Assembly: GCA_905331295.1 (NCBI GenBank)
Contig: CAJNYD010000555.1
Location: 1 to 64,000, forward strand
DNA: 64,000 nucleotides
Origin: Rotaria socialis
Lineage: Eukaryota
Reading direction: 5' to 3'
Positions 12,363 to 63,698 of this stretch are shown one piece after another (within the stretch, counting starts at the first letter, position 1; each line of letters starts with the position of its first letter). A model generated the notes under the pieces. That model saw nothing but the letters and a program-made list of their open reading frames with translations. It did no database searches and had not been told where the DNA came from. Position numbers and translations under genes: made by a program.

Positions 12363-14755
12363 ATGAATCAAACCAATGATTTTTCATCAAATTCAAACAG
12401 GTAAACGTATCGAAATATTTGTCATGAAACTTGCCATTTAATAGCGCAGTATTTATTGGCTCATCAATCATCAGTGAAATATGTTACACTTTATTACTCA
12501 TCTGCAATCATATTTCGCTACAGAAAATTTGCTTTTTTGGTAAATGTCGTGTTGTCATTTTCTTCATTTCTTCCTCTTATCAGTCACTCGTTATCGAAGA
12601 AGAGAATAATAAAAATACGCATTTATTTTGCGTATTTTGTTCTTTTTTCAACAGTTGGAGAAAGCAAACGAAGCATATTTTATCATCCCACGCCATTCTT
12701 AGACGGTATTTATCGTAACGAAATCGCATACTTCAAGTAAGTAAGATATGAAATGTTTCCTCTGTTTATCAACATGAATGTAGAAGAAGTGTCTAAAAGA
12801 GCTTCTATGCATCAGCGACGGAATCATTTTTATCATGTACCTGTTCCAATGACAAAAACATTCATTGAAGATGTGACATGAGACAAACTATCATAAATTG
12901 TAACATAGATATACTGAGAACATGGAAGATCATCTGAAGTCTTGCAAATGATTTTTCGTGTTCTCCCATAAGCTACCTGTGTTCGCACAGATGATATAGT
13001 TTCGATTTCACACAGAATTTAATCGAATTTAAATTTATGTAATAGAACACTAAAATATTGCTTGGAATAGAATCTTTGTAGGCGGAGCAGTTATATTTTT
13101 TGCTGAAAATTTCTCTTTTTCACCATTAGCAAACTTTTACTGAAAACGTTTACATTATATGCTTGCTTTTTCTAATACTTGCTACCAAGACTGAATCAAT
13201 CAATGTGAAAATAAGTGCAATTTTTACATGTTTCTAGTCACAAGTGCCGAAGAAGATCATTTTGGCACGATAAAAAAGAAATTCAACATGGCAAATTTAT
13301 ATCAAAATATAGTAATTCAAAATAACTTCTTAAATTTCATTAATCAGTACTTTTGATAGGCAGGCAGTTTGGAAAAGCCAGTATCAAAACAGACTGTTGT
13401 AAGCGCTGTATGGCCTCCTATTGCAGCACAACAACGACAAACTTCGCCTGTTCATGATCGATTGAACACTCCTGTATCGCAGTTGCATGCGGTAACAACA
13501 CATCATACTCCATACGACAATATTTACAACAAAAATGTTATCAATGACAAAACACAAATAGCGGTAAGAAGTTCTAAAAATAGATATCTCGTCTTTTAGA
13601 AACTGTTTGATGTTTATTGAATCACAATATACTTTCAAGAGTTATCAGTGAAATTCTTTGACTGAAAGTCATAATTTGTAAAGAATAGCAATGCTTTAGT
13701 TTTAGAGTTGAGACATGAACCACGAGTTTGCATGTTAGATAAATCATATGTAAAAAAATGATTGCCAGTCTGATTATGTGCAACTTGTTTCTAAAAAATT
13801 CTATACAATTTATTTGCAGCCAAATGCTGATCTATCTGTGACGATTTGTTATAAATGCAAAAGTAGTATCGATAAAAATAGTCAACCGAAGCTCACATTT
13901 AACAATCGTTTTTATCATCAACAATGTTTCAAGTGTGGTAGTTGCCGAAAAAATTTGAGCGACTCCGAGAACAGCAAATTTTCAATCGACGATGATGGTG
14001 AACCTTTATGCGCATATTGCGGATTAATAACTGCAAAAGTTTGTACTGTCTGCGGAACCCGTATTGTCAATGGAGGAACCATCAATTTCGATAGGAAAAG
14101 TTATCACACCGATTGTTTTCGTTGTAGCCAATGCCATCGACCAGTAGCAGGTGAACAAAAAACGCTAACACACAATTCGAAACCTTGTTGTATTACATGC
14201 TTTAAAGATAATTTCGCACCACGTTGTTCAAAGTGTACCCAACCGATTGTTCTTGAGCCAGCGGTCACTTGCGATGGGAAGAAGTATCATTCAGATTGTT
14301 TTTCTTGTGGGCAATGCCACAAACCGGTAACCGATTCTGAATATTACACACATCTTGGAGAACCTTGTTGCGCAAAATGTTTCACTGAACGTATTGCTTT
14401 TCGATGCGCAGAATGTTTTCGAATAATTTCTGATGGAAAATCGATTACTTGTGATGGCAAACACTACCATTCTGAATGTTTACATTGTGGCCAATGCAAA
14501 AAGCCTCTGGCGACTGAAAAAGATTTATTCAAGCACAATGAAAAGCCGTGTTGTAGTCGATGCCACGAGGAACATTTTGCACCGCGATGTTCAAAATGTT
14601 CAAGACCCATTAAAGATATCAACTATTCGACGTACGAGAACCAAAGTTTTCATAGTGATTGTTTCACCTGTTGGAAGTGCCACCGTGTAATTCATAGCTC
14701 AGAGAAGTTTTGTACCGATCAAGCTGGATTTTTATGTTTAACCTGTGCCAAATGA
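12363..14755 (+). CDS. Five-LIM-domain zinc-finger protein; 5' exons tentative
   Basis: Exon 13820-14755 encodes five tandem CxxC...HxxCFxCxxC...CxxC LIM domains. The upstream exon ending 13563 (gtaaga donor) joins in phase 0. A candidate first coding exon starts at ATG 12363 (gtaaac donor); the intermediate splicing is uncertain. Confidence 0.8.
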
Positions 14756-18733: not shown

Positions 18734-20105
18734 TTACAAAAGAGTAACCACTGCAGTTATCACAGAGCCAATTGAATCTGATTTTAACCAGAAACTCACA
18801 ACATACACTTGTCCAGCCGTAGCCGTAAACTGTTGGCTAAGTTGATCGGCACATCCATTACTTCCATCAGTAGCACAATAATTGCCACTACGACATGAAG
18901 AACTATATATTCCCGCTCGGAAACCTCCACAATTTCCATTTGGTCCTGTTCGTACCCAAGGTGAAAGAGTACAAGTTTCGAAACCTATATTTGATAGCAT
19001 TTGTGTGCCTCCTTGATAGATAGAGGTATCATCAAGATACCACTGACCTGGATCATTGCGCAGTTCAAATGTGAAATTAACTGGGCCTGTAGTAGGTGGT
19101 GTCCATTCATATGCATAGCAGCCGTACGTAGTCTTATTGGAAGTTGGGATAGTCAAAAGAGTACTTGCAGAACCAACATAACTAGGGGAGCATGGAGGCA
19201 GTGGTGTTGTTGCTGTTAATGAAGATAAACTTAATGATAGAAGATGAATAGACAAAAATTGATCTCACGAGGTAAGTTCAGATTTCCGAAAAAGTAAATT
19301 TCCGAAAATAACAAATTTCTGTCACACTATTAAAAGACACAAGAGTGCCAACAGAAATTTCCTTCAAACTTCCGTAATTGCCATTACGTACAAAAGAAAG
19401 TTATCAGAAAATACCATAATTTCAAATACCACCCAACAAAATATCCTGGGAATTTCTGAAATCCGCTTCACATAAAGACAGAAATTTTCCGTTAATTTCG
19501 GAAATAACTAATCACATGCCAGCAAATTAGAACCAAAACAAACACTAAATTCTCGACTGCTTTCCGTCATTATCTGGAAATTACGGTAATTTCTATACGA
19601 TATTAATATAGAAATTATGGAAACTTCCGTAATTTCCGAAATTTCCAGTAAAAGACTTTATTTTGGTTTTGGCTTATGGTGAATAATATTGGAGTAATTA
19701 CGAAAGTTTCTGATATTTTCTAAAACTTGACTTTTTCATCCCTGTAGTTTCCGAAATATTCATATTTAACTAGGAAATTTCCTTTTTTGGAAATCTGTCC
19801 AGTGCTGATTCACGATACATTTATAAATATTATCAGGACATACCACTGGTTGATGAAGTTGATGAAGTTGTTGTTATTGTTGTCGATACTGAAAGATTTA
19901 TAAAAGATTTTTCTTTATACGCTCAACTTTAACTCCTTGGAATAACAACAAAGATGTTTCATATAGATTATAGAATACCTGTAGTATTTGGAGATGATGT
20001 TAGCCAAAGTGTAATTATGATAGCTAATACTATACCGCCAAATAATGAACCAACGATGAAATATTTTATACATGTCGATTTGGCTGTACAAATATTGTTA
20101 ACCAA
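18734..20105 (-). CDS. Stalked CBM-like type II membrane protein, copy B (5' end unresolved)
   Basis: TM exon ~19978-20105 (YFIVGSLFGGIVLAIIITLWL), a 45-nt Ser/Thr exon at 19844-19888, and an intact head exon 18734-19212 (FELRNDPGQWYLDD...NIGFETCTLSPW...LSQQF...VSFWL). Confidence 0.7.
19276..19807. mobile_element. MITE-like element in an intron of copy B
   Basis: Imperfect terminal inverted repeats (ttcagatttccgaaaaag / ccttttttggaaatctgtcc) and many internal tttccgaaa/tttccgtaa motifs. Related element at 20503-20765. Confidence 0.55.
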
Positions 20106-34691: not shown

Positions 34692-36060
34692 TTACGACAG
34701 AGTAATATTTGCAGACACGACAGAACCTGTTGAGCCTGATTTCAACCAACAACTCACGATATAGATTTCTCCAGATGTAGCCATAAATTGTTGACTAAAC
34801 TGATCGGCACATCCATTACTTCCATCATAAGCAGAATAATTTTCACTATGATACAAAAAATTACACACTTCAGATGGTGCTCCTCCGCAAGCTCCATTCG
34901 ATGTTGTTCGAATCCAATGCGAAAGGTTACTTGTCTCAAAATCAGTATTAGTTAGCATTTGCACAGCTCCAGCATATACTAAGACATCATCAAGATACGA
35001 GTAGTCTGGATCATGAAGCAAATCAAAGGCAAAAGAAGCCAAACCCGTAGTAGGTGATGTCTATTCGTATGCAAAACATCTGTTTGCAATTGTACTGCTA
35101 GATGCTGCTATATAAAGACTACTTGCAGAAACAGCAGAACTAGGAACGCATGGTGGAGCTGGTGTTGTAATTGTGGAAGTAGTTGTGGTTGATGTTGATG
35201 TTGCTGTTGTTGAAGTTCTTGTTGTTACTGTTGATGTTAGTTTATTTGTGAGAAGAAAAACGACGAGAGCAGTAATACCTATCAGAAGTAATAAAATACC
35301 AATAAATGTTGAAATACAACAACATATGAAACATTCTGGATAGATTTTACCAATATAATGACGAGTTATTTTGTAGATATTATTTTTTTTCATTATGTTG
35401 CACTATTTTCTTTAATTTGTTTCCAGTAACGTCCACTGAATATCGGAGAATTCTTTCTTTTGACTCTTGTTCTTGATAATCTCCTCTTCATTTTACTCTT
35501 GATAAATTACTTGAAGCGCCATCATAGTTCATTACACCTGTTAACATTTTTTTGGATGATGATGTCTACGGCGGTAATGAAATAATGAGAGAAATGAATA
35601 AAAAACCAAGAAAAATAATTACTTTCGAAGTCACATTAGATTTATTGTCAGTCGATCTCCTTGTTTTAGTACGAGTAATATCTATACTATTTAATGATGA
35701 AGTTTCACGCATTTTGGTGACTACTGGATGCATAGAAGTTGATGAGAACGTTTTTGATTTATATTGACCTGATGGACCATTCGCTTCTTCTAAGTTTAGA
35801 TAATTAGGCATCGTCTAAAAAAATAGCTGAAAGGAAATTTTTGCAGTCAGATGCAAAAAACAGACTTTCGCTTTGAGCATTAAAAAATCTCGAGAAAACA
35901 AATTTTTAAAGGAACACAACTTTATATAAGGTCATGTATGTTTACCTGTTTTTCTTCGTCACTTCTATCTTCGTTGTAGTGTGCTGAGTGAATAATATCA
36001 TTTCTATTGAGTGAATGTCGACTGTCAGGAGCTACTTTGATTATGGGCACGTTGAAGTAA
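34692..36060 (-). pseudogene. Stalked CBM-like family, copy D (pseudogene)
   Basis: TM (CCCISTFIGILLLLIGITALVVFLL), Thr stalk and head lie in one exon. TAG at 35061-35063 replaces a conserved Trp, there is a further stop after SSNLSRVK, and conserved Cys/Trp residues are lost. Upstream exons are homologous to copies F and G. Confidence 0.8.
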
Positions 36061-41506: not shown

Positions 41507-43300
41507 TTAGGAGAGAGTAACCGTCGCAGTTGTGACAGGTGCTAATGTGCCTGCTCTCAGCCAAAAGCTTACAACATAGACTTCTCCTGCTGTAGCGGTA
41601 AATTGTTGACTGATTTGATCAGCACATCCAAGACTTCCATCATACATACAATAAGTTCCACTGTGACACGAAGAATTAGTTATACTGCCTGGTGTTCCCG
41701 TGCAAGCTCCATGCGGTGTTGTTCGTACCCAAGGTGAAAGAGAGCCAGTTTCGAAACCTATATTAGTTAACATTTGAATAGCTCCATCATAGATTGAGGT
41801 ATCATCAAGTACCCATTGGGAGGGATCATTACGAAGTTCAAAGGTTAAATTAACTGGACCTGTAGTAGGTGACGTCCATGTATATGCGTAGCAGTTGTAC
41901 GTAATTACAGTAGGAGATGAGATCGCCAAAAGAGTACTCGCAGAACCGACAGAAGTAGGAGCACAAGGAGCAGCAGGCGTTGTTGCTGTTAATAACGATA
42001 AACTTAATGAAAGAAAATGAATGGGCAAGCATTGGGCTCACTTGTTGTACTCGTACTAGCTAGAATAATTAAAGAAAAACATTCAAATGAAGAGAAATAA
42101 TGATTCTTTTTATTTGAAACTTGACTTGGTAAGTACTTACAGGTAGTTGATGTTGAAGCTAATGAAAAAGAGAAACGCGAAAATGATTTCTAATAAAAGA
42201 TAATGGATGAAAGTTGTTACTTGCTGATGTCGTACTTGTCGTTGATGTAGCTTAAAAGAAAAATGTAAATAAATCATTTGTTATTTATCTTTTTGAAAGC
42301 ATCCTAAACTAGAAATAATTTGCTTTCATTTCAAACTAATTCTTAAACATCCCCGTCGATATGACAGCGGATGCTAGGGGACTAGGCCTTCTCATTTGTT
42401 CGTGAAATAGTATTAATCAGTACGAATCCTTTCTAAAAAATGATGGCATATAGAGACCTAGTTGCTCTCAATCATGAGCGTTTATGCTAAAATTGAAAAG
42501 TAATGCAATATAAGTTTCGTAAATTCATATTTAGTTCGTATGAAAATATTCATACTGTGTGCTATATACTCAAACCTTGAAATTTCAAAAATATTGAATA
42601 CTGTTTCCTTCGTAATTTGATAGAACTTTTATGGTGATTAATCACATTTGTCACTTGCATGATGTCGTTTGAATACTTGCTTTTACTTGAATAGGAATAT
42701 TAAAAAAATCAGTAGTGAATGCAGTCCTGGCGGTCGAGACTTTCATCCTATGGAGTGCAGGTAGAAGTAATAGTGTGGGGACAAATCTAAGTAGGTCTGA
42801 GCAATAGTTGTAGTGAAAAAATAAAAATACTAGTATTGAAGAAGTACGTTATAAGTGAGGAATATGAATTCTGCAATATTTTTCTCTAAATAGGTGTAAA
42901 CTATAGAGAAGCTAGAATCACCAGGATCGGGGGATCGAAGAAATATGGGCTTCGATAACTCTACGCTTGAATGACGGGAAAATATAGAAATCCACATTAT
43001 ATTCATGAGACATTCTGAAATATCATTGCGACCTACTGTTTATTGATGAAGTTTTTGTAATTTTATGGATACTGGATGATTTATAAAAAAAAGACAATCT
43101 CTTAACAACCGAGTTCTATTTATCATTATAAGTTTATTGGTGATATGAAGAAGTTAAATACAAATTATAGAATACCTGTAAATGATGTTAACCAAAGCAT
43201 GATTACGACGGTTAATATTATACCACCAAATAGTGAACCAATAAGAAAACATAGAATACATATGCATTTTGGTGTATAAATACTGGAAACATGTTCATAT
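41507..43300 (-). CDS. Stalked CBM-like type II membrane protein, copy E (5' end unresolved)
   Basis: TM exon 43176-43300 (ILCFLIGSLFGGIILTVVIMLWL), micro-exons 42221-42250, 42141-42158 and 42042-42059, and an intact head exon 41507-41985. Confidence 0.75.
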
Positions 43301-48580: not shown

Positions 48581-50099
48581 TCAAGAGAGAGTTACTGTCG
48601 CAGTTATACCAGCGCCAAGTGAATCTGTGCTTAACCAAAAACTCACGATATACACTTGTCCAGCCGCAGCCGTAAATTGTTGACTAAGTCGATCGGCGCA
48701 TGAATTACTTCCATCGCAGGCACAATAACTTCCACTTCGACAATTATAATTGCAAATTCGGGCTACGTACCCTCCACAACTTCCATATGGTCCAGTGCGT
48801 ACCCAAGGTGAAAGTGAACCAGTTTCGAAACCTATATTTGTTAGCATTTGTGTGCCTCCTTGATAGATAGAGGTATCATCAACATACCACTGACCTGGAT
48901 CATTGCGCAGCTCAAACATAAAAGTAACTGGACCTGTCGTAGGTGACGTCCATGAATATACATAGCAGCCGTATGTAGTGTCATTGGGAGACGAGATAGT
49001 CAAAAGAATACTTGCAAGACCAACAGAAGTAGGAAGACATGGGGGTAACGGTGTAGTTGTTGTTGATGCTGTCGTTGTGGTTACCGATGTTGTTGAAGTT
49101 GCTGTCGTCGAAGTTGTTGTGGTTGCTGTTGTTGTCACAATATGTGTATTTGTGAGAAGAAAAACCAAGAGAGCAGCAATACCCATCAGAAGTAATAAAA
49201 TACCAATAGATATTGAAACACAACAACATGCCGAACAGGCCGGACAGATTTTACCAATACAGCGACGATTTCTTTTATTGGTTTTGTTTTTTTCAGTATT
49301 TTTCGCTGTTGTCTTTAATCTGTCTTCAAGCACGCCCCATGCATATCGAAGACTTCTTGGTTTTGACTTTTGTTCTTGATATTCTTCCATTGATTTCATT
49401 CTCGATAAATTAGCTGAAACATTATGGTTCATTACACTACTGAAAAGTTTACTGGATGATGATGCCTATGTCAGTAGTAAAGTAAATGAGGACTCAAAAA
49501 AAATAATATGTACCGAAATCTCATTAAATTTATTTTTAGTTGTTCGAATACTGTGAGGATGAATGATATTGTGACGTTTTATTGATGAAGTTTCAGCCAT
49601 TTCAATGACGAGTGGATGCATAGAAGTTGGTGAAACTGGATTTGATTTAAATTTATTAGTAGTAGTGGATATGCCACTCATTTTGCCTGAGCGTAAATCA
49701 TCAGATAGTATCTAAATAAATAATTAAGAGATATTTATCAAATTAGAGGAAAACTATCGAGCATTGACTTCGCAGAATTATAGTAGATGTTCAATAGAAC
49801 AAGAACAATTTCTTTTAATAAAAGATTTTTATCTAGATTACATGGTTTACCTGTTTTTTTCGGATACGCTGATCATTGTTCTTATGCATGGAACGTTTTG
49901 TTTTCCTTCGGATTGATGAATTTCTACTAGCAAGAACTACTGTCACGGACCCCTTAAAAATAAAATCTCAGTAAATTAATGTGATACTTTCGAAAGAACT
50001 TGCGGTTTTTTTATATTTTTTATGAATGCTTGACTGCATATTTTCCCGACGAACAGGAACCACAGTGACTCGTATTTTCGGTTCAGTTTCGAACATCAT
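48581..50099 (-). CDS. Stalked CBM-like type II membrane protein, copy F
   Basis: A single exon 48581-49465 encodes the cytoplasmic part, Cys-rich TM (CCCVSISIGILLLLMGIAALLVFLL), Thr stalk and head. Upstream phase-0 exons at ~49514-49711 and ~49851-49952. The putative first exon (ATG ~50099) seems to carry one extra base in an A-run relative to copy G. Confidence 0.8.
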
Positions 50100-52784: not shown

Positions 52785-55700
52785 TTACGTGAGAGTTACT
52801 GTCGCAGTTATACCAGCGCCAAGTGAATCTGTGCGTAACCAAAAACTCACGATATACACTTGTCCAGCCGCAGCCGTAAATTGTTGACTAAGTCGATCGG
52901 CACATGAATTACTTCCATCGCAGGCACAATAACTTCCACTTCGACAATTATAATTGCAAATTCGGGCTACGTACCCTCCACAACTTCCATATGGTCCAGT
53001 GCGTACCCAAGGTGAAAGTGAACCAGTTTCGAAACCTATATTTGTTAGCATTTGTGTGCCTCCTTGATAGATAGAGGTATCATCAACATACCACTGACCT
53101 GGATCATTGCGCAGCTCAAACATAAAAGTAACTGGACCTGTGGTAGGTGACGTCCATGTATACGCGTAACAATTATACCCAGTAGCAGTAGGATTTGAGA
53201 TAGTCAAAAGAGTACTTGCAGAACCTACTGAGGTTGGTATACAGGGAGGTGTCGGCGTCGTTGCTATTTACATTGGTAAAACAGATTATCAAAGGCAAGC
53301 AAAGTAAAATACAAGTTACCTGTTGTGCTGGTAGAAGTTGAACCTAGAAAAATTAATAAAATTTATTTAAGCAAAACAAACAATCTCTTCTTTGAAGAAT
53401 GATAGCAAAGGATCTACTTTTTTGTAGCTATCAGAGACCATCACAGGGCACAACAAACGACTTTGCCTTGGGAGCTGTGTACTGATCCTAATTTATTTTT
53501 TTCTGATTGACAATATTTGATGTCAATTTTAACCCAATTACTCTTTGTCCAATGTATTTTGATCGAGTGATATGAACTCAAGCTGTTTGTAAATTGAAAT
53601 TAAGTAGTAATGTAATTGAGTCTTTATTTTAATACATATCTTATAAAGTATGAACGTCATATAAAGTTGTTGCTCAAGAACTTTATGAACGAAAAGAACT
53701 CTTTAACAAAAAAAAAGTAAATAAAAATTTTCTTTTCATTCAAAAGATCCAATTTTAATCGAGCCATTTAAAAAATAGGCGACTTTGAAGTAAATAACCA
53801 ACAAAAATAGAAGATTATTCTGTACTAGAAAACTGCTCACTAAAATATTTCATGAAGCTTTACAATTAAGAAATGACGATGTCATTTTGTCTTTTTAATC
53901 TATTTATAGTGACCGATATATTCAATCTTTATTTTCAGAAATAAAAAATTTTGAAGAAATTTTGTAATAAATAGAAAGAATTTGTTTATGTCTATTTTAT
54001 AAAAATTAAGATGAAATAGGACTCTCAGTAAAAAACCTTTTTTGTATTTAAATTACTTTCCTTCCAAAAAAAAAATGGTGTTTTTTTCTAGTGAAAATCC
54101 TAGTATTCAACAACACTTTCTCAATAAAAATGCTTAACTCAATAATAATAAAATTACCTCAAAAATTTTTGAATATAAATTTGAATGCTGTTATAAAACA
54201 AATATGTAAAGAATCAACACTTTCGGAGCAGCAATGTGGTATAGAATTTTTGAAAAACTTATGCATTTCTATTGCGCAGGGAAGGGCTGACTAATATTAT
54301 TATCATTTTGGTTCACACCAATAAGTGTCATTTCTCGTCACAAAGTGGAGCATGACATGTGTCTGGCGCTAAAATTGTGCTTAGCATCAACGAACAATCA
54401 AACAGTTTGATTGGAATAGTAGCATTTCAATCAATTTTTTAGGAGAAAAATACCAATTAAAATTGGATTTCTTCTCGAATCTTCGTACAAACACTGCTAT
54501 CGGACACGCGATTCTATTTAATTGCATACTAATTTTTTGATTTTGACATTCTTTCGTGAAGACATAAAATGAATATGATCACTAGTCTTGAAAAGCAAAT
54601 ACATTACTTTAATCAAGCCTTACGATCTCATATAGGCATATTCAATTTAGAGATTTCATTTCAAATTGCCCTGCTCTGTGATACTCTATGGTAGCTATCA
54701 ATCATAGCTGCGAAGCTGAGAAAAATAAAAACTATATTATCATTTTTCACTTTACTCACTTGTTGTTGTTGTTGTTGTTTGTGCTTGTATATACGAAAAA
54801 GAAAGAATTATACTGGTTTTCTCATGCGACAAAGACATTACTTACATGTAGATGATGTTGAACCTATCATAAACACAAAATAGTAAAGATTAATAGTAAA
54901 AAATTACAAATTACTTGTGGACGATGTCGTTGTAGTTGAAGTTGTCGATGTTGATGTTGTTGAAGTTGTCGACGTTGATGTCGTCGAAGTTGTTGTTGTT
55001 GCTGTTGTTGTCACAATATGTGTATTTGTGAGAAGAAAAACCAAGAGAGCAGCAATACCCATCAGAAGTAATAAAATACCAATAGATATTGAAACACAAC
55101 AACATGCCGAACAGGCCGGACAGATTTTACCAATACAGCGACGATTTCTTTTATCGGTTTTGTTTTTTTCAGTATTTTTCGCTGTTGTCTTTAATCTGTC
55201 TTCAAGCACGCCCCATGCATATCGAAGACTTCTTCGTTTTGGCTTTTGTTCTTGATATTCTTCCATTGATTTCATTCTCGATAAATTACTTGAAACATCA
55301 TGGTTCATTACACTACTGAAAAGTTTACTGGATGATAATGCCTATGTCAGTAGTAAAATCAACGAGAAATCAAGAAAACTAATTAGTACCGAAGTCACAT
55401 TGAAGTTATCTGTAGTTGTTCGAATTCTTTGAGGGTGAATAATAGTTGGAGTTCGGATTGATGAAATTTCATGCATTTCGATGATGACTGGGTGCATAAA
55501 AGTTGGTGTAACTGTATTTGATTTAAATTTATTAACAGATGTTGATAGACCACCTATTTCATCTAAGTGTAAATCATCAGACAACATCTAAATAAATAAT
55601 TAAAAAATATTTATGAAATCAGATAAAATTACTTTCGTATTTACAATGGGAAAAAGAATTTCGACACAACAATATTTTAAGATAAAAGATTTTACTTCAG

Positions 55701-58349: not shown

Positions 58350-61067
58350 ATGACTGAATTTATGTGCACTTATCTAATAATACTCTTCTGGTCAGTTTTA
58401 CTAGTGCTGGGACGCAACTCTGAAAACGTGGAAAATGTTAGTGAATTAAATTCAGCACACGTGAAAAGGGATGAAGAATCGAACTCAATGGAACCAAATA
58501 ATTATAGTAGGATCTAGTTTCTTTTTTTATTTCATTGAATTTAACTTAGGTACTCTGTAGAGAAATTTGTTGCAACGTACAAGACTAATATTAATGTTTT
58601 GTCCGATAGCATCGATTTATCGAAAATAGAGGAGGAGGTATCTGTATATATATATATATATACATACTCTTTCACTTGTAGTTCTTCATTTATTTTCCTT
58701 TATTCTTTTCATTCAACAGTTTGAATTAGCTCTAAAAGCTGAATCAGAAACTATTACCATAGAACAGATAGAAAGTGTATCAACAAGCGAACATAATCAT
58801 CAATTGTTGTAAGCAATACTTTTTGAATGACGTAAGCGATTTATGTTTATGTTTCTGTATCGCAAGAATAATACGTTCCAATACAAGCAATACGAACTTT
58901 GGAATTATTATTACATTTATTATTAAATTTCCACGTAGCCAAGTATGTCAAACTACTAAATGTATCGATACGTTCTTCAATGGCATGCAACAGCGATTTG
59001 AACGTTTCTGTAACTTGACTATCACACTTGTATACAAGGACCAAAATGGAGTATATAAAGTTCAGCTAAGACTGTGCTCAATTCAGATAACCAGTACGCA
59101 ATCGATCAATACAACATCAACAACGACGACAACTAAGACACCAACTATCACAATCACCTCTCCAACCACAACCACAACTACAACTGCGACTACAACAACA
59201 ACTGCATCAACAACAACAACAACAACAACTACATCAACAACAACAGCATCAACAACTACCGTGTCGACTAAGGAAGATTCAAGTACCTTGTGGTTTACTA
59301 TTGATTGCTAATGTGAAAAGTTATACATTCAATACCTGCAAAATATTTGAATTGGTTCATGGTAAAAAGGATTAAATTTTTACGAGATAAGCAAAGAGAA
59401 ATTATCGTGCTATCCGAGTATAACATAACTTTAGAACTGTAATAGTGTTATTTAGATTTTATATTTTCTTGAAAGGGCTAAAGATTTCGAGGAAGTTGAG
59501 TCGATTGTTGGTATTGCAAGAGTTAAACAGACAGAAGTAAATTATACAGAAAAACTTTCGCTAATTGACGTTTGTTTGAAGTCTCCAGTGTTTTTATCCC
59601 TCCTAGATTAGATACCTCATGTGAGCTTGAAAATAGATTAAATTTTTAAATATAGTAAGTATAGAAGCGTAACAGCTGCAGAATTAGCATTGATCTGACA
59701 ACTCTATTAAAGTGTGAACAGTAGCATTTCGGACTAAGCGATCTGAGAAATAATAATTATGTTTTTAAATGTATTCTAATTAACAAACTATATGTAGAAG
59801 ATTATGCTAGTTGAACTACTAATTCCTTTTTTTTGTAGTGAGTGGCATTGCTGGCAGTGGACTACCTTTTGATAATATGCAACCATCTTTGGTACTTACA
59901 CAAATAGTACCATTGTCTATTACATTTCCTCTATGTGCTATTCGTACTTTTGCATGCAACTTTGCTCCTGGTAATAGTCTTCTAGCATATGGACAACTAC
60001 TCCCGATAGCATCCAATACAGCGATATTTTCTATCATGGGTACAACTTATGGAGGTGACGGTAAAAAAACCTTTGCACTTCCGAATTTACAAGGTATTAC
60101 AATTATTGGTAGTGGTCAAGGTAGTGGCTTATCACCTTATCGCCTAGGCGAACAGACCGGAAGTCAACAAGTAACACTGACTAAAAATCAGATGCCGGCA
60201 CATGTACACTCAATCCCAAGCTCGATTGATTTCACAGGCGTGACAGGTTCATCACAATCATTCTCTTCTATTCAACCATCTTTAGCGATGAGCTATCTGA
60301 TTTGTATAAGTGGTGTTTTTCCATCCGCTGGTTCCTCCGTAGGACAACTACCATTCATCGGTCAAATCGTTCCATATACTGGAAATGTTATACCGACGGG
60401 ATGGGCACTAGCGGATGGAAGCTTATTGTCGATTGCATCAGATACAGCTCTGTTTTCAATACTTGGTACTACGTACGGAGGTGATGGAGTAACTAACTTT
60501 CGTTTACCAGACTTACAAGGCAGAGTACCTGTTGGCGTTTCTGGAAGTTTAAATACACAGATTGGTAATACTATTGGCGTCGAATCTGTTACTCTGTTAA
60601 CCAATAACTTACCTTCACATGTGCATAGTCTAGTCGGTAGCAAGTATAATGCGACTCAAACTGGTGTTACAGGAGCTGGACAGACTTTCGATAATCGGCA
60701 ACCTGGTTTGGGAATCACTTATCTGATAACAATGCAAGGAGTATTTCCATCACAAGGAGGTACTGGTCCAGAACCTATGGCACCTTATCTTGGAGAGATT
60801 GTTGCATTTGCTGGTAATTTTCAGCCAGGGGGTTACGCCTTTGCCAATGACCAACTACTATCAATTTCTCAAAATACAGCTCTCTTTGTTTTGCTGGGTA
60901 CTACTTATGGTGGCAATGGTATAACAAGTTTTGCTCTTCCTGATCTTCGCGGTCGAGTCATCCTCGGATCTGGAAGAGGTTTTAGCATTGGGCAAACCCT
61001 TGGTTCATCGCTGATAACGCTAACAGTAGATCAAATGCCATCTCATGCACATAGTCTTAGCCCATAA
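58350..61067 (+). CDS. Secreted chimeric protein: signal peptide, N-domain, Thr stalk and three phage tail-collar (MdpB-like) repeats
   Basis: Exons 58350-58506, 58561-58637, 58720-58808, 58867-59282 and 59839-61067 join in frame through GT-AG introns. N-terminus MTEFMCTYLIILFWSVLLVLG. The last exon has three copies of G(Q/S)LLxIxxNTALFSxLGTTYGGDGxxxFxLPDLxGR...VTL...MPxHxH. Confidence 0.85.
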
Positions 61068-62317
61068 AACATGATTTAGTATCACTGATATTTTTGTTAA
61101 ATTTCAATATGACCGTTAATGAAGTTTGATCATCACATTTGAACTATAATTTCAGTACTGATTCTTGTCTCCGAATATCCTATTTCATCTATGCAAATGA
61201 AAAAATTGCGTAGCATCATTGATTTCGAATCAAAAATAAAGGGTAACTGCGTAACTAACCATAGGTTTTTCCCGCTTTGTCATGTCGATGATATGCTTCG
61301 TGGAATAATACCATATGAACGTGTGAAAAATGCATAATTTATAGGAATATTTTTATAGCCATTCACAATCACGTATATATTGTATAGGGAGAAGAGTAGT
61401 AAGTAGCTCATAAAAAATACATCAAGAAAGTATCTTCAAGGAAGTCATAACTGCCGGTGAGGTACTCGTTTTTATTTACTTTTGCATTTCTATCAAAAAC
61501 GTTTCTTATTTTACTAGCTTATTTCTACCTTTTCTCTAGCTAACAAACAATTAAACTAATTGTTAAATTCTACTCATACAACAAAACTAATCTTGAATAT
61601 GTGTTGCTGTTGAGTCCGATCATTTTTATTTTTGCCTCACTGCTTATCTTTTCACGTGAAAAATATTCTAGAAAATTCACTGATGATTTCTTCACTAGTA
61701 TTTTCAGTAAAGTTAAGTATTTTATAGCAAAATTAAAATTGTGATTGAGTAATCAAATGAAGCAGGCGTGAGTCATATTCAAAAATACTTGTTTCTTAAT
61801 TTACAAGGCTGTATCATTGTATTGAAATTTTTGACTTGAATCTGATTAGATGTAGTTTCGAAACTGAAATATGTTTACAATTAGGTGTTACCGGCCATAT
61901 CAAGACTCGATTCGTAAAGCAATGTGTGATTGGTATTGGACAATGAAAGAATAAATGTTTTAAGAATATATACTTGTTGGTTCTCTTTTCTGTTCTTTTA
62001 TTCGCATTGTTTATTACAAGGGCATAAATATTTGTTTTCTATTTCTCTTCATTCCTTTTCTCTGCACAGTATTCGCTTCTTTTTCGCGTTATGTTGGTGC
62101 TCCTCCACGTGATATTATATCGTCTTAAATACTAAAAACTGAGCAAAACAAATGCATTTTTGACAACTAGTACATGTCAACACAAATCTATCTAAAGTAA
62201 CGATTTTAATTAATCAAGCGTAACATATCCTGGCATTCATTTACGTGTACACTAAAACACAATAAAAAAAATAGAACGCATATCACCAACAACTTCAGCA
62301 AACATAATATTAAGTAA

Positions 62318-62953
62318 ATGAGCCAAGTTCATTTTTCTAATAACAAAGTATCGTTACCCTTGAATATGATGCATCGAACATGTCGTCGTTCTATGGAAAA
62401 ATTAAATATTTACGACTCGAATACATCACCATCCATTTCATCAAAACCTCAATTACCTCCACCTTTACCACCACCCCGTAAAAATCGGCGCCATCTATAC
62501 AATGGTGAAACTTTCGAACGTTATCACTTTCTCTGTAATATGAAGCGCCATAGAACAGATCCGATTTATGCTGCTACGCCAATGTTTTCAACAATACCAC
62601 AATCAACACCAGTAAAACATACTCGAACATTGCTAGGCGCTTATATACCTTCATATATTATTAAGCCTTTACCGATTCAATCTCCGATGTCTACTACATC
62701 TCCAGAACTATCAAATGCTAATAAAATTGATGATGCAGAAAGAGATAGAAATAAGAATAATGATCAAAATGCAAGTGATGGTGATAAAAATAGAGATGTC
62801 GATGACGATGATGATGACGATCAAGGAAATTCATCAAGTAGTAGTGATGACATTGGTATTGATGATATTATTAATAATGATGATGATGTGATCGATGATA
62901 ATGATAATGATCAAGGGATGGTAGAAAAAATATTCAACACAAATAAGAAATGA
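62318..62953 (+). CDS. Hypothetical low-complexity protein (Pro-rich N-half, Asp/Asn-rich tail)
   Basis: 211-aa ATG-initiated ORF in AT-rich DNA with a PPPLPPPRK motif and acidic tail, followed by aataaa at ~63012. No recognisable domain. Confidence 0.6.
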   Translation: MSQVHFSNNKVSLPLNMMHRTCRRSMEKLNIYDSNTSPSISSKPQLPPPLPPPRKNRRHLYNGETFERYHFLCNMKRHRTDPIYAATPMFSTIPQSTPVKHTRTLLGAYIPSYIIKPLPIQSPMSTTSPELSNANKIDDAERDRNKNNDQNASDGDKNRDVDDDDDDDQGNSSSSSDDIGIDDIINNDDDVIDDNDNDQGMVEKIFNTNKK

Positions 62954-63698
62954 ATAATTGCGTCGCTTTTGTAGCTATTTCATAGTTAGTAAATTTTTAT
63001 ATTTTTTTATGAATAAAACTCAAAAATTGTCGAAATCTTTCTTGTTCTTTTCATTATAAAGTAATACAACTAATTCTACTCGAAATATATACTTATATAC
63101 AAGCAATTGAATTTCCATACATGGAAAATCATCTATGACAGACTTCTACATTATCGATTTAAAACTCACTGATAGAGTTAGATAAGAATACAAATTGAAC
63201 GAATTCAGCACAAACATATTTTATCATGTTTTCTACAAGAAATGCAAATCATATTTGCGAATCTACAATCAGTATAAAAAGTTTCACAAAATTCAATAAT
63301 GCGTAAAAATTATCTATGAAAACAATGCCATATGAAAGCTCATTACAACGAAAGAGTACGGAAAATTTTCTGCTGCTCTCTGACATAAAAATGTGCAATC
63401 TCTACTCAGTGAGAACAACACAGTTTGAATCTCAAACTACTTTAGATTGCTTTCTGGTAAACATTGAACTGAAACATGCTCTCGAAAGCGTCTGCTTCCA
63501 ACAACGATCTGCCGATGCGGACATGCATGTATTGTGTAAGATTCTTCTCGGTATATTTTCTTACTAGAAGAGTGGTTTTGTCTCGGATAAAGCATCTTCC
63601 CAACTGAGTTCTAAGCGTAGATGAATGAAACGATCTGTATGAATAAATGAACTATTATTCCTCTTCCGATTTAATAATAATTCATTCGATGAATGAAA

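Follow-up and report, generated by a model that had tools for sequence, protein, structure and literature searches.

Why should the DNA of a rotifer encode collar units of the kind seen in phage tail fibers, and what could such a protein do for an animal? The window, i.e., the whole stretch of DNA analyzed here, is 64,000 nt from Rotaria socialis (positions 1–64,000 of contig CAJNYD010000555.1), and the exon concerned is at positions 59839–61067 on the forward strand. The reading favored here, to which we give a probability of about three in four, has several parts. In this exon, three collar/HxH units of the phage type follow one another in a rotated order. They are predicted to form a pseudo-trimeric knob from one chain, likely with one metal ion on six His residues. 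The module was likely acquired from bacteria already permuted, and the rotifer likely secretes it as a binding protein attached to a mucin-like stalk.

The triple collar module

The collar exon is in a plus strand frame at positions 59823–61067. A polypyrimidine/TAG splice acceptor ends at position 59838 and a TAA stop codon is at 61065–61067. The 408 aa product (P0001) has three stretches of the Pfam Collar family PF07484 and scores 220.3 bits against a cut-off of 24 (E = 1.9e-66); an NCBIfam scan assigned no family to it. The collar sequence is present in one open frame only, and no second copy was found elsewhere in the 64 kb window.

The collar unit was divided into two segments. C consists of the collar and the outgoing strand up to the HxH motif, and R is the return strand. 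Profiles of both were made from an alignment of 116 homologous sequences, the R profile from internal copies only. As delimited by Pfam, the profiles, AlphaFold2 and the TAA end, the module occupies exon 5 (59839–61067) and reads R0-C1-R1-C2-R2-C3. The leading return strand R0 (59841–59912), a segment that normally ends a unit, is marked by its R profile score and by a predicted strand (E16–23) with pLDDT 93–98. It is followed by C1 (59931–60212, HxH at nt 60201), R1 (60237–60326), C2 (60351–60629, HxH at nt 60618), R2 (60663–60752) and C3 (60783–61055, HxH at nt 61044). Units 1 and 2 are each closed by a return strand after the tip; the strand of unit 3 sits at the N-terminus. The three units are 46–51% identical among themselves.

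A preliminary description of this DNA had proposed that the exon opens with the segment that normally ends a unit, halts right after the third HxH and therefore holds three complete units in permuted order. The data bear this out on each point. Residues 1–30 score 41.8 bits against the R profile and the best of 1,000 shuffles scores 14.0, so that the N-terminal segment does align with the unit C-terminus, on which the proposal hinged. Only four residues remain between the third HxH and the stop codon. The profiles read R-C-R-C-R-C across the three Collar stretches, and when single-unit bacterial collar proteins are aligned, 111 of 120 read C-R. The order in the exon is thus a true rotation.

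The HxH motifs are PAHVH, PSHVH and PSHAH, with the first His at residues 121, 260 and 402. They contain all six His residues of the 408-residue product, and three HxH motifs did not arise by chance in any of 20,000 shuffles of the exon product.

Predicted fold

AlphaFold2 modeling on the 116-sequence alignment gives a mean pLDDT of 96.4 and a pTM of 0.92, with no block below 84. The five models concur (pLDDT 96.1–96.4). Strands at residues 16–23, 147–155 and 289–297 correspond to each other, and the leading strand is ordered. Modeling without the alignment gave a pLDDT of 29.8 and was unusable. For repeats that fold separately and are joined by linkers, a far lower pTM is expected. The model is a single rigid body that includes the leading strand, which supports the single-chain pseudo-trimer of the preliminary description and not a set of independently folded repeats; the presence of three collars in 144 of the best 150 relatives and the all-or-none loss of HxH motifs, both described below, point the same way. 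The prediction is thus of a pseudo-trimeric knob to which all three units of the one chain contribute, with the leading strand predicted to serve as the return strand of the third unit. One chain would then replace three, the leading strand closing the ring on the third collar. A further prediction, in which the module was split into three units and complexed with Zn, did not use the alignment (control 0.32 vs 0.36) and is not taken as evidence.

Comparison of one model unit with known structures shows phage fibers alone at the top of the ranking, at low Z values (3.6–4.2). The values are Z 3.7, rmsd 4.1 and 88 aligned residues for T4 gp12 (1ocy 333–514), Z 3.6, rmsd 1.8 and 69 aligned for gp37 (2xgf), and Z 4.2, rmsd 3.0 and 96 aligned for the A-1(L) fiber (8kec). 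Model residues 164–287 map onto gp12 333–514, which represents the collar through to the return strand, and the end of the 8kec chain shows a weak match to the R profile. A second structural comparison (VIA) finds the same fibers with Z 2.6–3.7, and a Foldseek search of the PDB found nothing at E ≤ 0.001.

Phage fiber tips are obligate trimers and are often chaperone-dependent. Three whole rotifer chains might likewise assemble, each unit trimerizing with its counterparts, or chains might swap units into a mesh. The solved collar proteins found here are indeed phage fibers, and a viral contig (L006, position 757 onward) has a 1,511-residue frame with four unpermuted units in one long protein. 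Such an assembly is nevertheless very unlikely. The monomer is modeled as one rigid body, the orphan leading strand is sensible only if it closes the ring with the third collar, the junctions are short (~8–11 residues), and the number of units in relatives is nearly always three or six.

HxH motifs and the putative metal site

In gp12, Zn is on the threefold axis, held by His445 and His447 of each chain, with the metal buried (PMC3004832). By analogy, the six His residues of the single-chain knob likely hold one metal ion, in a putative site of the same kind.

The motifs were counted in 345 complete triples out of 353. There are three HxH motifs in 268, none in 73, two in 4 and one in 0, in a set whose members share ancestry and are not independent. 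Complete loss falls at six separate clades or tips on the tree. That the motifs are lost together fits one shared site, and the 73 of 345 relatives without HxH imply that the metal is inessential to the family. Since the fold can persist without the motifs, the metal probably acts as a staple and is not itself the function. A large clade that includes P0186, P0216 and relatives, RTX-type and related, has a permuted triple without HxH and without tips that starts at residue 4–5.

A bacterial family of permuted triple collars

The same unit order is widespread in bacterial proteins. The 240 matches listed consist of the best 120 of 2,916 of similar length and the best 120 of 387 that are longer. 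Of these, 220 read R-C-R-C-R-C, 18 have no leading R that scores and 2 contain a pair of triples; there is no unpermuted one among them. The bias of this survey was reduced by use of a query without R0 against 1.84 billion representatives, which gave 1,061 matches at E ≤ 1e-30. The best 150 of these comprise 128 with R-C-R-C-R-C, 11 with C-R-C-R-C, 3 with C-R-C-R-C-R and 8 with other orders, although the queries of the survey have short tips and the ranking still favors permuted matches. The three unpermuted triples have long tips. The number of collars in these best 150 is three in 144, six in 3, two in 2 and eleven in 1. In P0412, P0487 and P0509, three unpermuted units with long tips share one chain that has a signal-like N-terminus; these proteins are possibly precursors of the permuted form.

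By a simple pattern, 97 of 114 near triples have a signal peptide and a PEP-CTERM-like end. Other carriers have RTX repeats, Hint, Ig-like or FG-GAP parts. Secreted bacterial proteins with the same permutation, for which the preliminary description had suggested a search, are present. Named hosts include Planctomycetota, Verrucomicrobiota, proteobacteria, Acidobacteriota and Myxococcota, and bacteria are the sole named source of matches apart from the rotifer-type sequences. Annotations of its members read just "tail fiber protein" or "microcystin-dependent protein". No permuted triple was found among 80 viral loci kept of 564, and none of 50,697 phage records covers 80% of the query.

A literature search, with thin coverage of subscription papers and bioRxiv supplements, found no description of a permuted triple-collar family, nothing that links the tail collar with bdelloids or rotifers, and nothing that combines at least three of single-chain form, pseudo-trimer, tail fiber and circular permutation. 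The novelty is mainly the bacterial permuted family and its adoption by an animal.

In the metagenomic sequence P0426, also a permuted triple, each of the three junctions at the collar base has an Arg-rich RRL motif. These motifs resemble eukaryotic propeptide cleavage sites, and P0426 is possibly a second eukaryotic acquisition. Rows in the supplement to PMC4632278 likewise have protists as second-best match.

Collar triads and possible routes to fusion

The preliminary description stated that bacterial collar genes often occur as three tandem paralogs, and this holds for 53 of the 80 genome loci kept (of 604). Sixteen loci have fused forms, 11 of them with the full R-C-R-C-R-C order. There is a virophage counterpart, DSLV2, in which three tandem collar proteins form a heterotrimer (PMC12724248). 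Loci L091, L140 and L150 have tandem triads, with two or more per locus.

Helper genes differ between the two types of locus. A GNAT profile matches at 43 of 64 unfused loci vs 2 of 16 fused, and a DUF6916 profile at 40 of 64 vs 0 of 16, in loci L081–L160 with flanks of ≤ 5 kb, where some loci are short. This suggests that units fused in one chain may need neither partner chains nor helpers. That the fused triple arose directly from genes 1, 2 and 3 of a triad was considered and is not supported: position profiles do not pair each fused unit with one triad position, and support in the unit tree is poor. Candidate intermediates are the unpermuted triples and two-unit fusions at L122 and L147. 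At these two loci (L122, position 5499 onward; L147, position 5034 onward) two of the three triad genes are in one open frame, which could be partial fusions or sequence errors.

Gene structure and the surrounding locus

In the predicted gene, five exons, beginning with an ATG at position 58350 and separated by GT-AG introns of 54, 82, 58 and 556 nt, give an open frame of 655 residues. All are on the plus strand. Exons 1–3 are predicted from GT-AG sites and frame. Exon 1 (58350–58506) has the ATG, a hydrophobic stretch that resembles a signal peptide (residues ~5–21) and an acidic region with a KR pair. Exons 2 (58561–58637) and 3 (58720–58808) represent an acidic linker and follow the 54-nt and 82-nt introns, respectively. 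Exon 4 (58867–59282), based on the frame and on NCBI models P0002 and P0004, encodes a small four-Cys domain followed by a 60-residue stalk that is 80% Thr/Ser. The four-Cys domain (window 58868–59119) has no match in Pfam, PHROGs or the PDB.

These two R. socialis models likewise splice exon 4 onto the collar exon. The NCBI models begin inside exon 4, without the signal peptide, and the exon 4/5 joint varies among them. An optional small exon from position 59476 was also considered and was rejected, as both versions tried break the frame; NCBI model P0365 uses part of it with a different donor. In R. sp. Silwood1 a signal-like N-terminus is immediately ahead of the module (P0005). With exons 1–3 as predicted, the rotifer likely secretes the module on a mucin-like stalk.

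Other genes are present in the window. At least five paralogous genes are on the minus strand (18734–19264, 34692–35402, 41507–42037, 48581–49465, and 52785–53267 with 54904–55341). They have a Cys-rich membrane anchor, a Thr stalk and a C-terminal domain, which matches CBM_4_9 (E = 0.07) and NTTRR-F1 (E = 5e-4) weakly, both below the cut-off. A stalk plus a binding module is a design common to these paralogs and the collar gene. A plus strand Cys/His-rich repeat frame at 13754–14755 has the look of tandem LIM domains by eye. Downstream, one 697-nt contig of run X1, a run that does not extend over the collar gene, spans region 62265–62961 with zero differences, and the overlapping frame at 62318–62953 (211 residues) has no Pfam match.

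Rotifer orthologs and probable transfer

The best matches to the module are Rotaria socialis proteins (96–100% identity), followed by R. magnacalcarata (76%). R. sp. Silwood1 and Silwood2 match at 60–69%, and three unnamed sequences at 60–64%. The remaining matches are bacterial or unnamed metagenomic proteins with ~40–53% identity. R. socialis, Silwood1 and Silwood2 retain all six His residues. In R. magnacalcarata, the annotated copy (P0006) lacks two internal segments, of 30 and 22 residues, and has only one intact HxH. It is possibly a decaying copy or a gene-model artifact, and the gene may be dispensable or decaying in that species.

Redundancy filtering reduced 239 triples to 178, and in a tree of these all eight rotifer-type sequences group in a single clade (support 1.0) that is nested among bacterial sequences. 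A second tree of 258 sequences includes four rotifer-type sequences, again together, and the sister lineage of the rotifer clade differs between the two trees. The simplest reading is a single transfer of an already permuted gene. On these sequence comparisons, the rotifer likely gained the module pre-permuted from a bacterial family of secreted surface proteins. Donor bacteria would have supplied the permuted triple ready-made, and the rotifer would have added the signal and stalk exons. The suggestion that the permutation predates the transfer is strongly supported by the 220 of 240 listed homologs that are permuted and by the nested position of the rotifer clade. The opposite case, a permutation made in the rotifer, was rejected because bacterial homologs are already R-C-R-C-R-C.

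Could the gene be a bacterial contaminant or a non-functional relic of a transfer? The named matches are bacterial apart from the rotifer-type sequences, and the R. magnacalcarata copy looks degraded. The local sequence argues otherwise: the exon is in AT-rich DNA where GT-AG introns join the open 655-residue frame, and its GC3 of 0.24 matches that of three neighboring frames (0.21–0.28). Intact orthologs are present in three Rotaria taxa, with 60–69% identity and in one clade. This explanation is the least likely of those weighed here. The gene is nested among bacterial homologs, has introns and has host-like codon use, as expected of a horizontally acquired bdelloid gene.

Orientation and possible function

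In the description of T4 gp37 drawn on here from PMC12724248, the collar consists of residues 811–860 and 1016–1026, and the receptor-binding region is at 907–996. The collar is thus built from both flanks of the receptor-binding region, so that each unit is a hairpin. The return-to-collar junctions have median lengths of 8–11 residues. The tip gaps have medians of 8 and 9 residues in triples, whereas the value for single units is 44. In the rotated order every return strand is linked to a collar, and the break in the chain is at the third tip; this would place both termini, and hence the stalk or anchor, at the HxH end.

Conservation is retained in the collars and at the end of the return strand, which reads G-x-F-P-S. 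A HEXXH metallopeptidase of ~190 residues is inserted at the R2-C3 junction in 26 of 220 triples (P0122 and 25 others); the P0122 insert is a Peptidase_M10. Short tips, a conserved collar base and the peptidase at R2-C3 together favor the collar base as the working face, and we put at about even odds that the base is exposed in this role. The stalk would attach at the shortened HxH end and the collar base would face outward as the binding face. As the distal receptor part is cut to ~8–9 residues, the label "fiber tip" may mislead, and the binding face may sit elsewhere than the shortened tip. A microbial surface polymer is the best guess for the ligand.

The same one-chain fold could instead have the mounting found in phages. 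The working face would then be the HxH end, or the metal itself, e.g., for metal capture, with the collar base structural only. Retention of all six His residues in R. socialis, Silwood1 and Silwood2 fits such a role, the T4 receptor-binding region lies distal to the collar (PMC12724248), and HxH fibers have been proposed as iron ligands (PMC11705849). Against this, the tips are only 8–9 residues long, and the stalk or anchor would exit at that end together with both termini; six separate lineages without any HxH still keep their collars; and the gp12 metal is buried (PMC3004832), while one ion per 408 residues makes poor storage. We regard the phage-like mounting as unlikely.

A broader scheme with the collar base as the binding face is tentative, and we hold it to be possible rather than probable. 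Bacteria would have inverted the phage fiber tip by fusion of three units and a cut of the ring at one tip. The result would be a monomeric module that needs no helper, with the anchor at the old receptor end and the collar base binding one common ligand. It would have been reused in PEP-CTERM, RTX and Ig-like surface proteins of many phyla, sometimes with a protease on that face, and adopted by an animal as a secreted, stalked microbe-binder.

If the one-chain version folds as a monomer, it would be a simple scaffold that allows each of the three units to be altered on its own, and the unexplained bacterial collar triads become testable by way of one protein. It would also be a case of a phage-derived structural module that reached an animal via bacteria and was joined to host-type signal and stalk exons.

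Comparison with known systems

T4 gp12 (1OCY) and gp37 (2XGF) resemble the exon units in that they have a collar, an outgoing strand with HxH, and a C-terminal return strand that completes the collar. The rotifer product matches 1ocy by sequence (E = 0.0022) and by profile (E = 1.2e-06), and an HxH follows the collar in each unit. The differences are in assembly and context. The T4 proteins are three chains of one unit, whereas by sequence the rotifer module is not a homotrimer of identical single-unit chains but three units, rotated, in one chain. They have an extended distal head, which is nearly absent in the rotifer module (tips of 8 and 9 vs 44 residues). They are virion parts, whereas the rotifer gene has introns and is in rotifer DNA, without a phage or tail-cluster context. 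The module works like a T4-type collar/HxH fiber tip yet is not a phage fiber.

The fiber of cyanophage A-1(L) (8KEC) is the best PDB match by both sequence (E = 7e-09) and structure (Z 4.2), but it has one collar match per chain and a long tip and is part of a virion. The virophage DSLV2 tail proteins are similar in that three diverged PF07484 units form one trimer; PMC12724248 reports co-purification and LPS binding. They differ in that there are three genes with long receptor-binding regions, and in the model of that paper the collar is the part docked on the capsid, with binding by the head.

The closest single units are those of the bacterial collar triads (JGI "microcystin-dependent protein") with GNAT and DUF6916. 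There, each unit is a chain of its own in which the collar precedes the return strand and the tip has ~44 residues, and helper genes are present. The "tail fiber proteins" of Sphingomonas tabacisoli, Adhaeretor mobilis and other bacteria have the same R-C-R-C-R-C module as the rotifer, at ~40–55% identity, and the rotifer protein shares both the order and the short tips of this permuted family. The bacterial permuted triples end in PEP-CTERM, RTX, Hint or Ig-like parts, whereas in the rotifer protein the Thr stalk comes before the module and the module is last.
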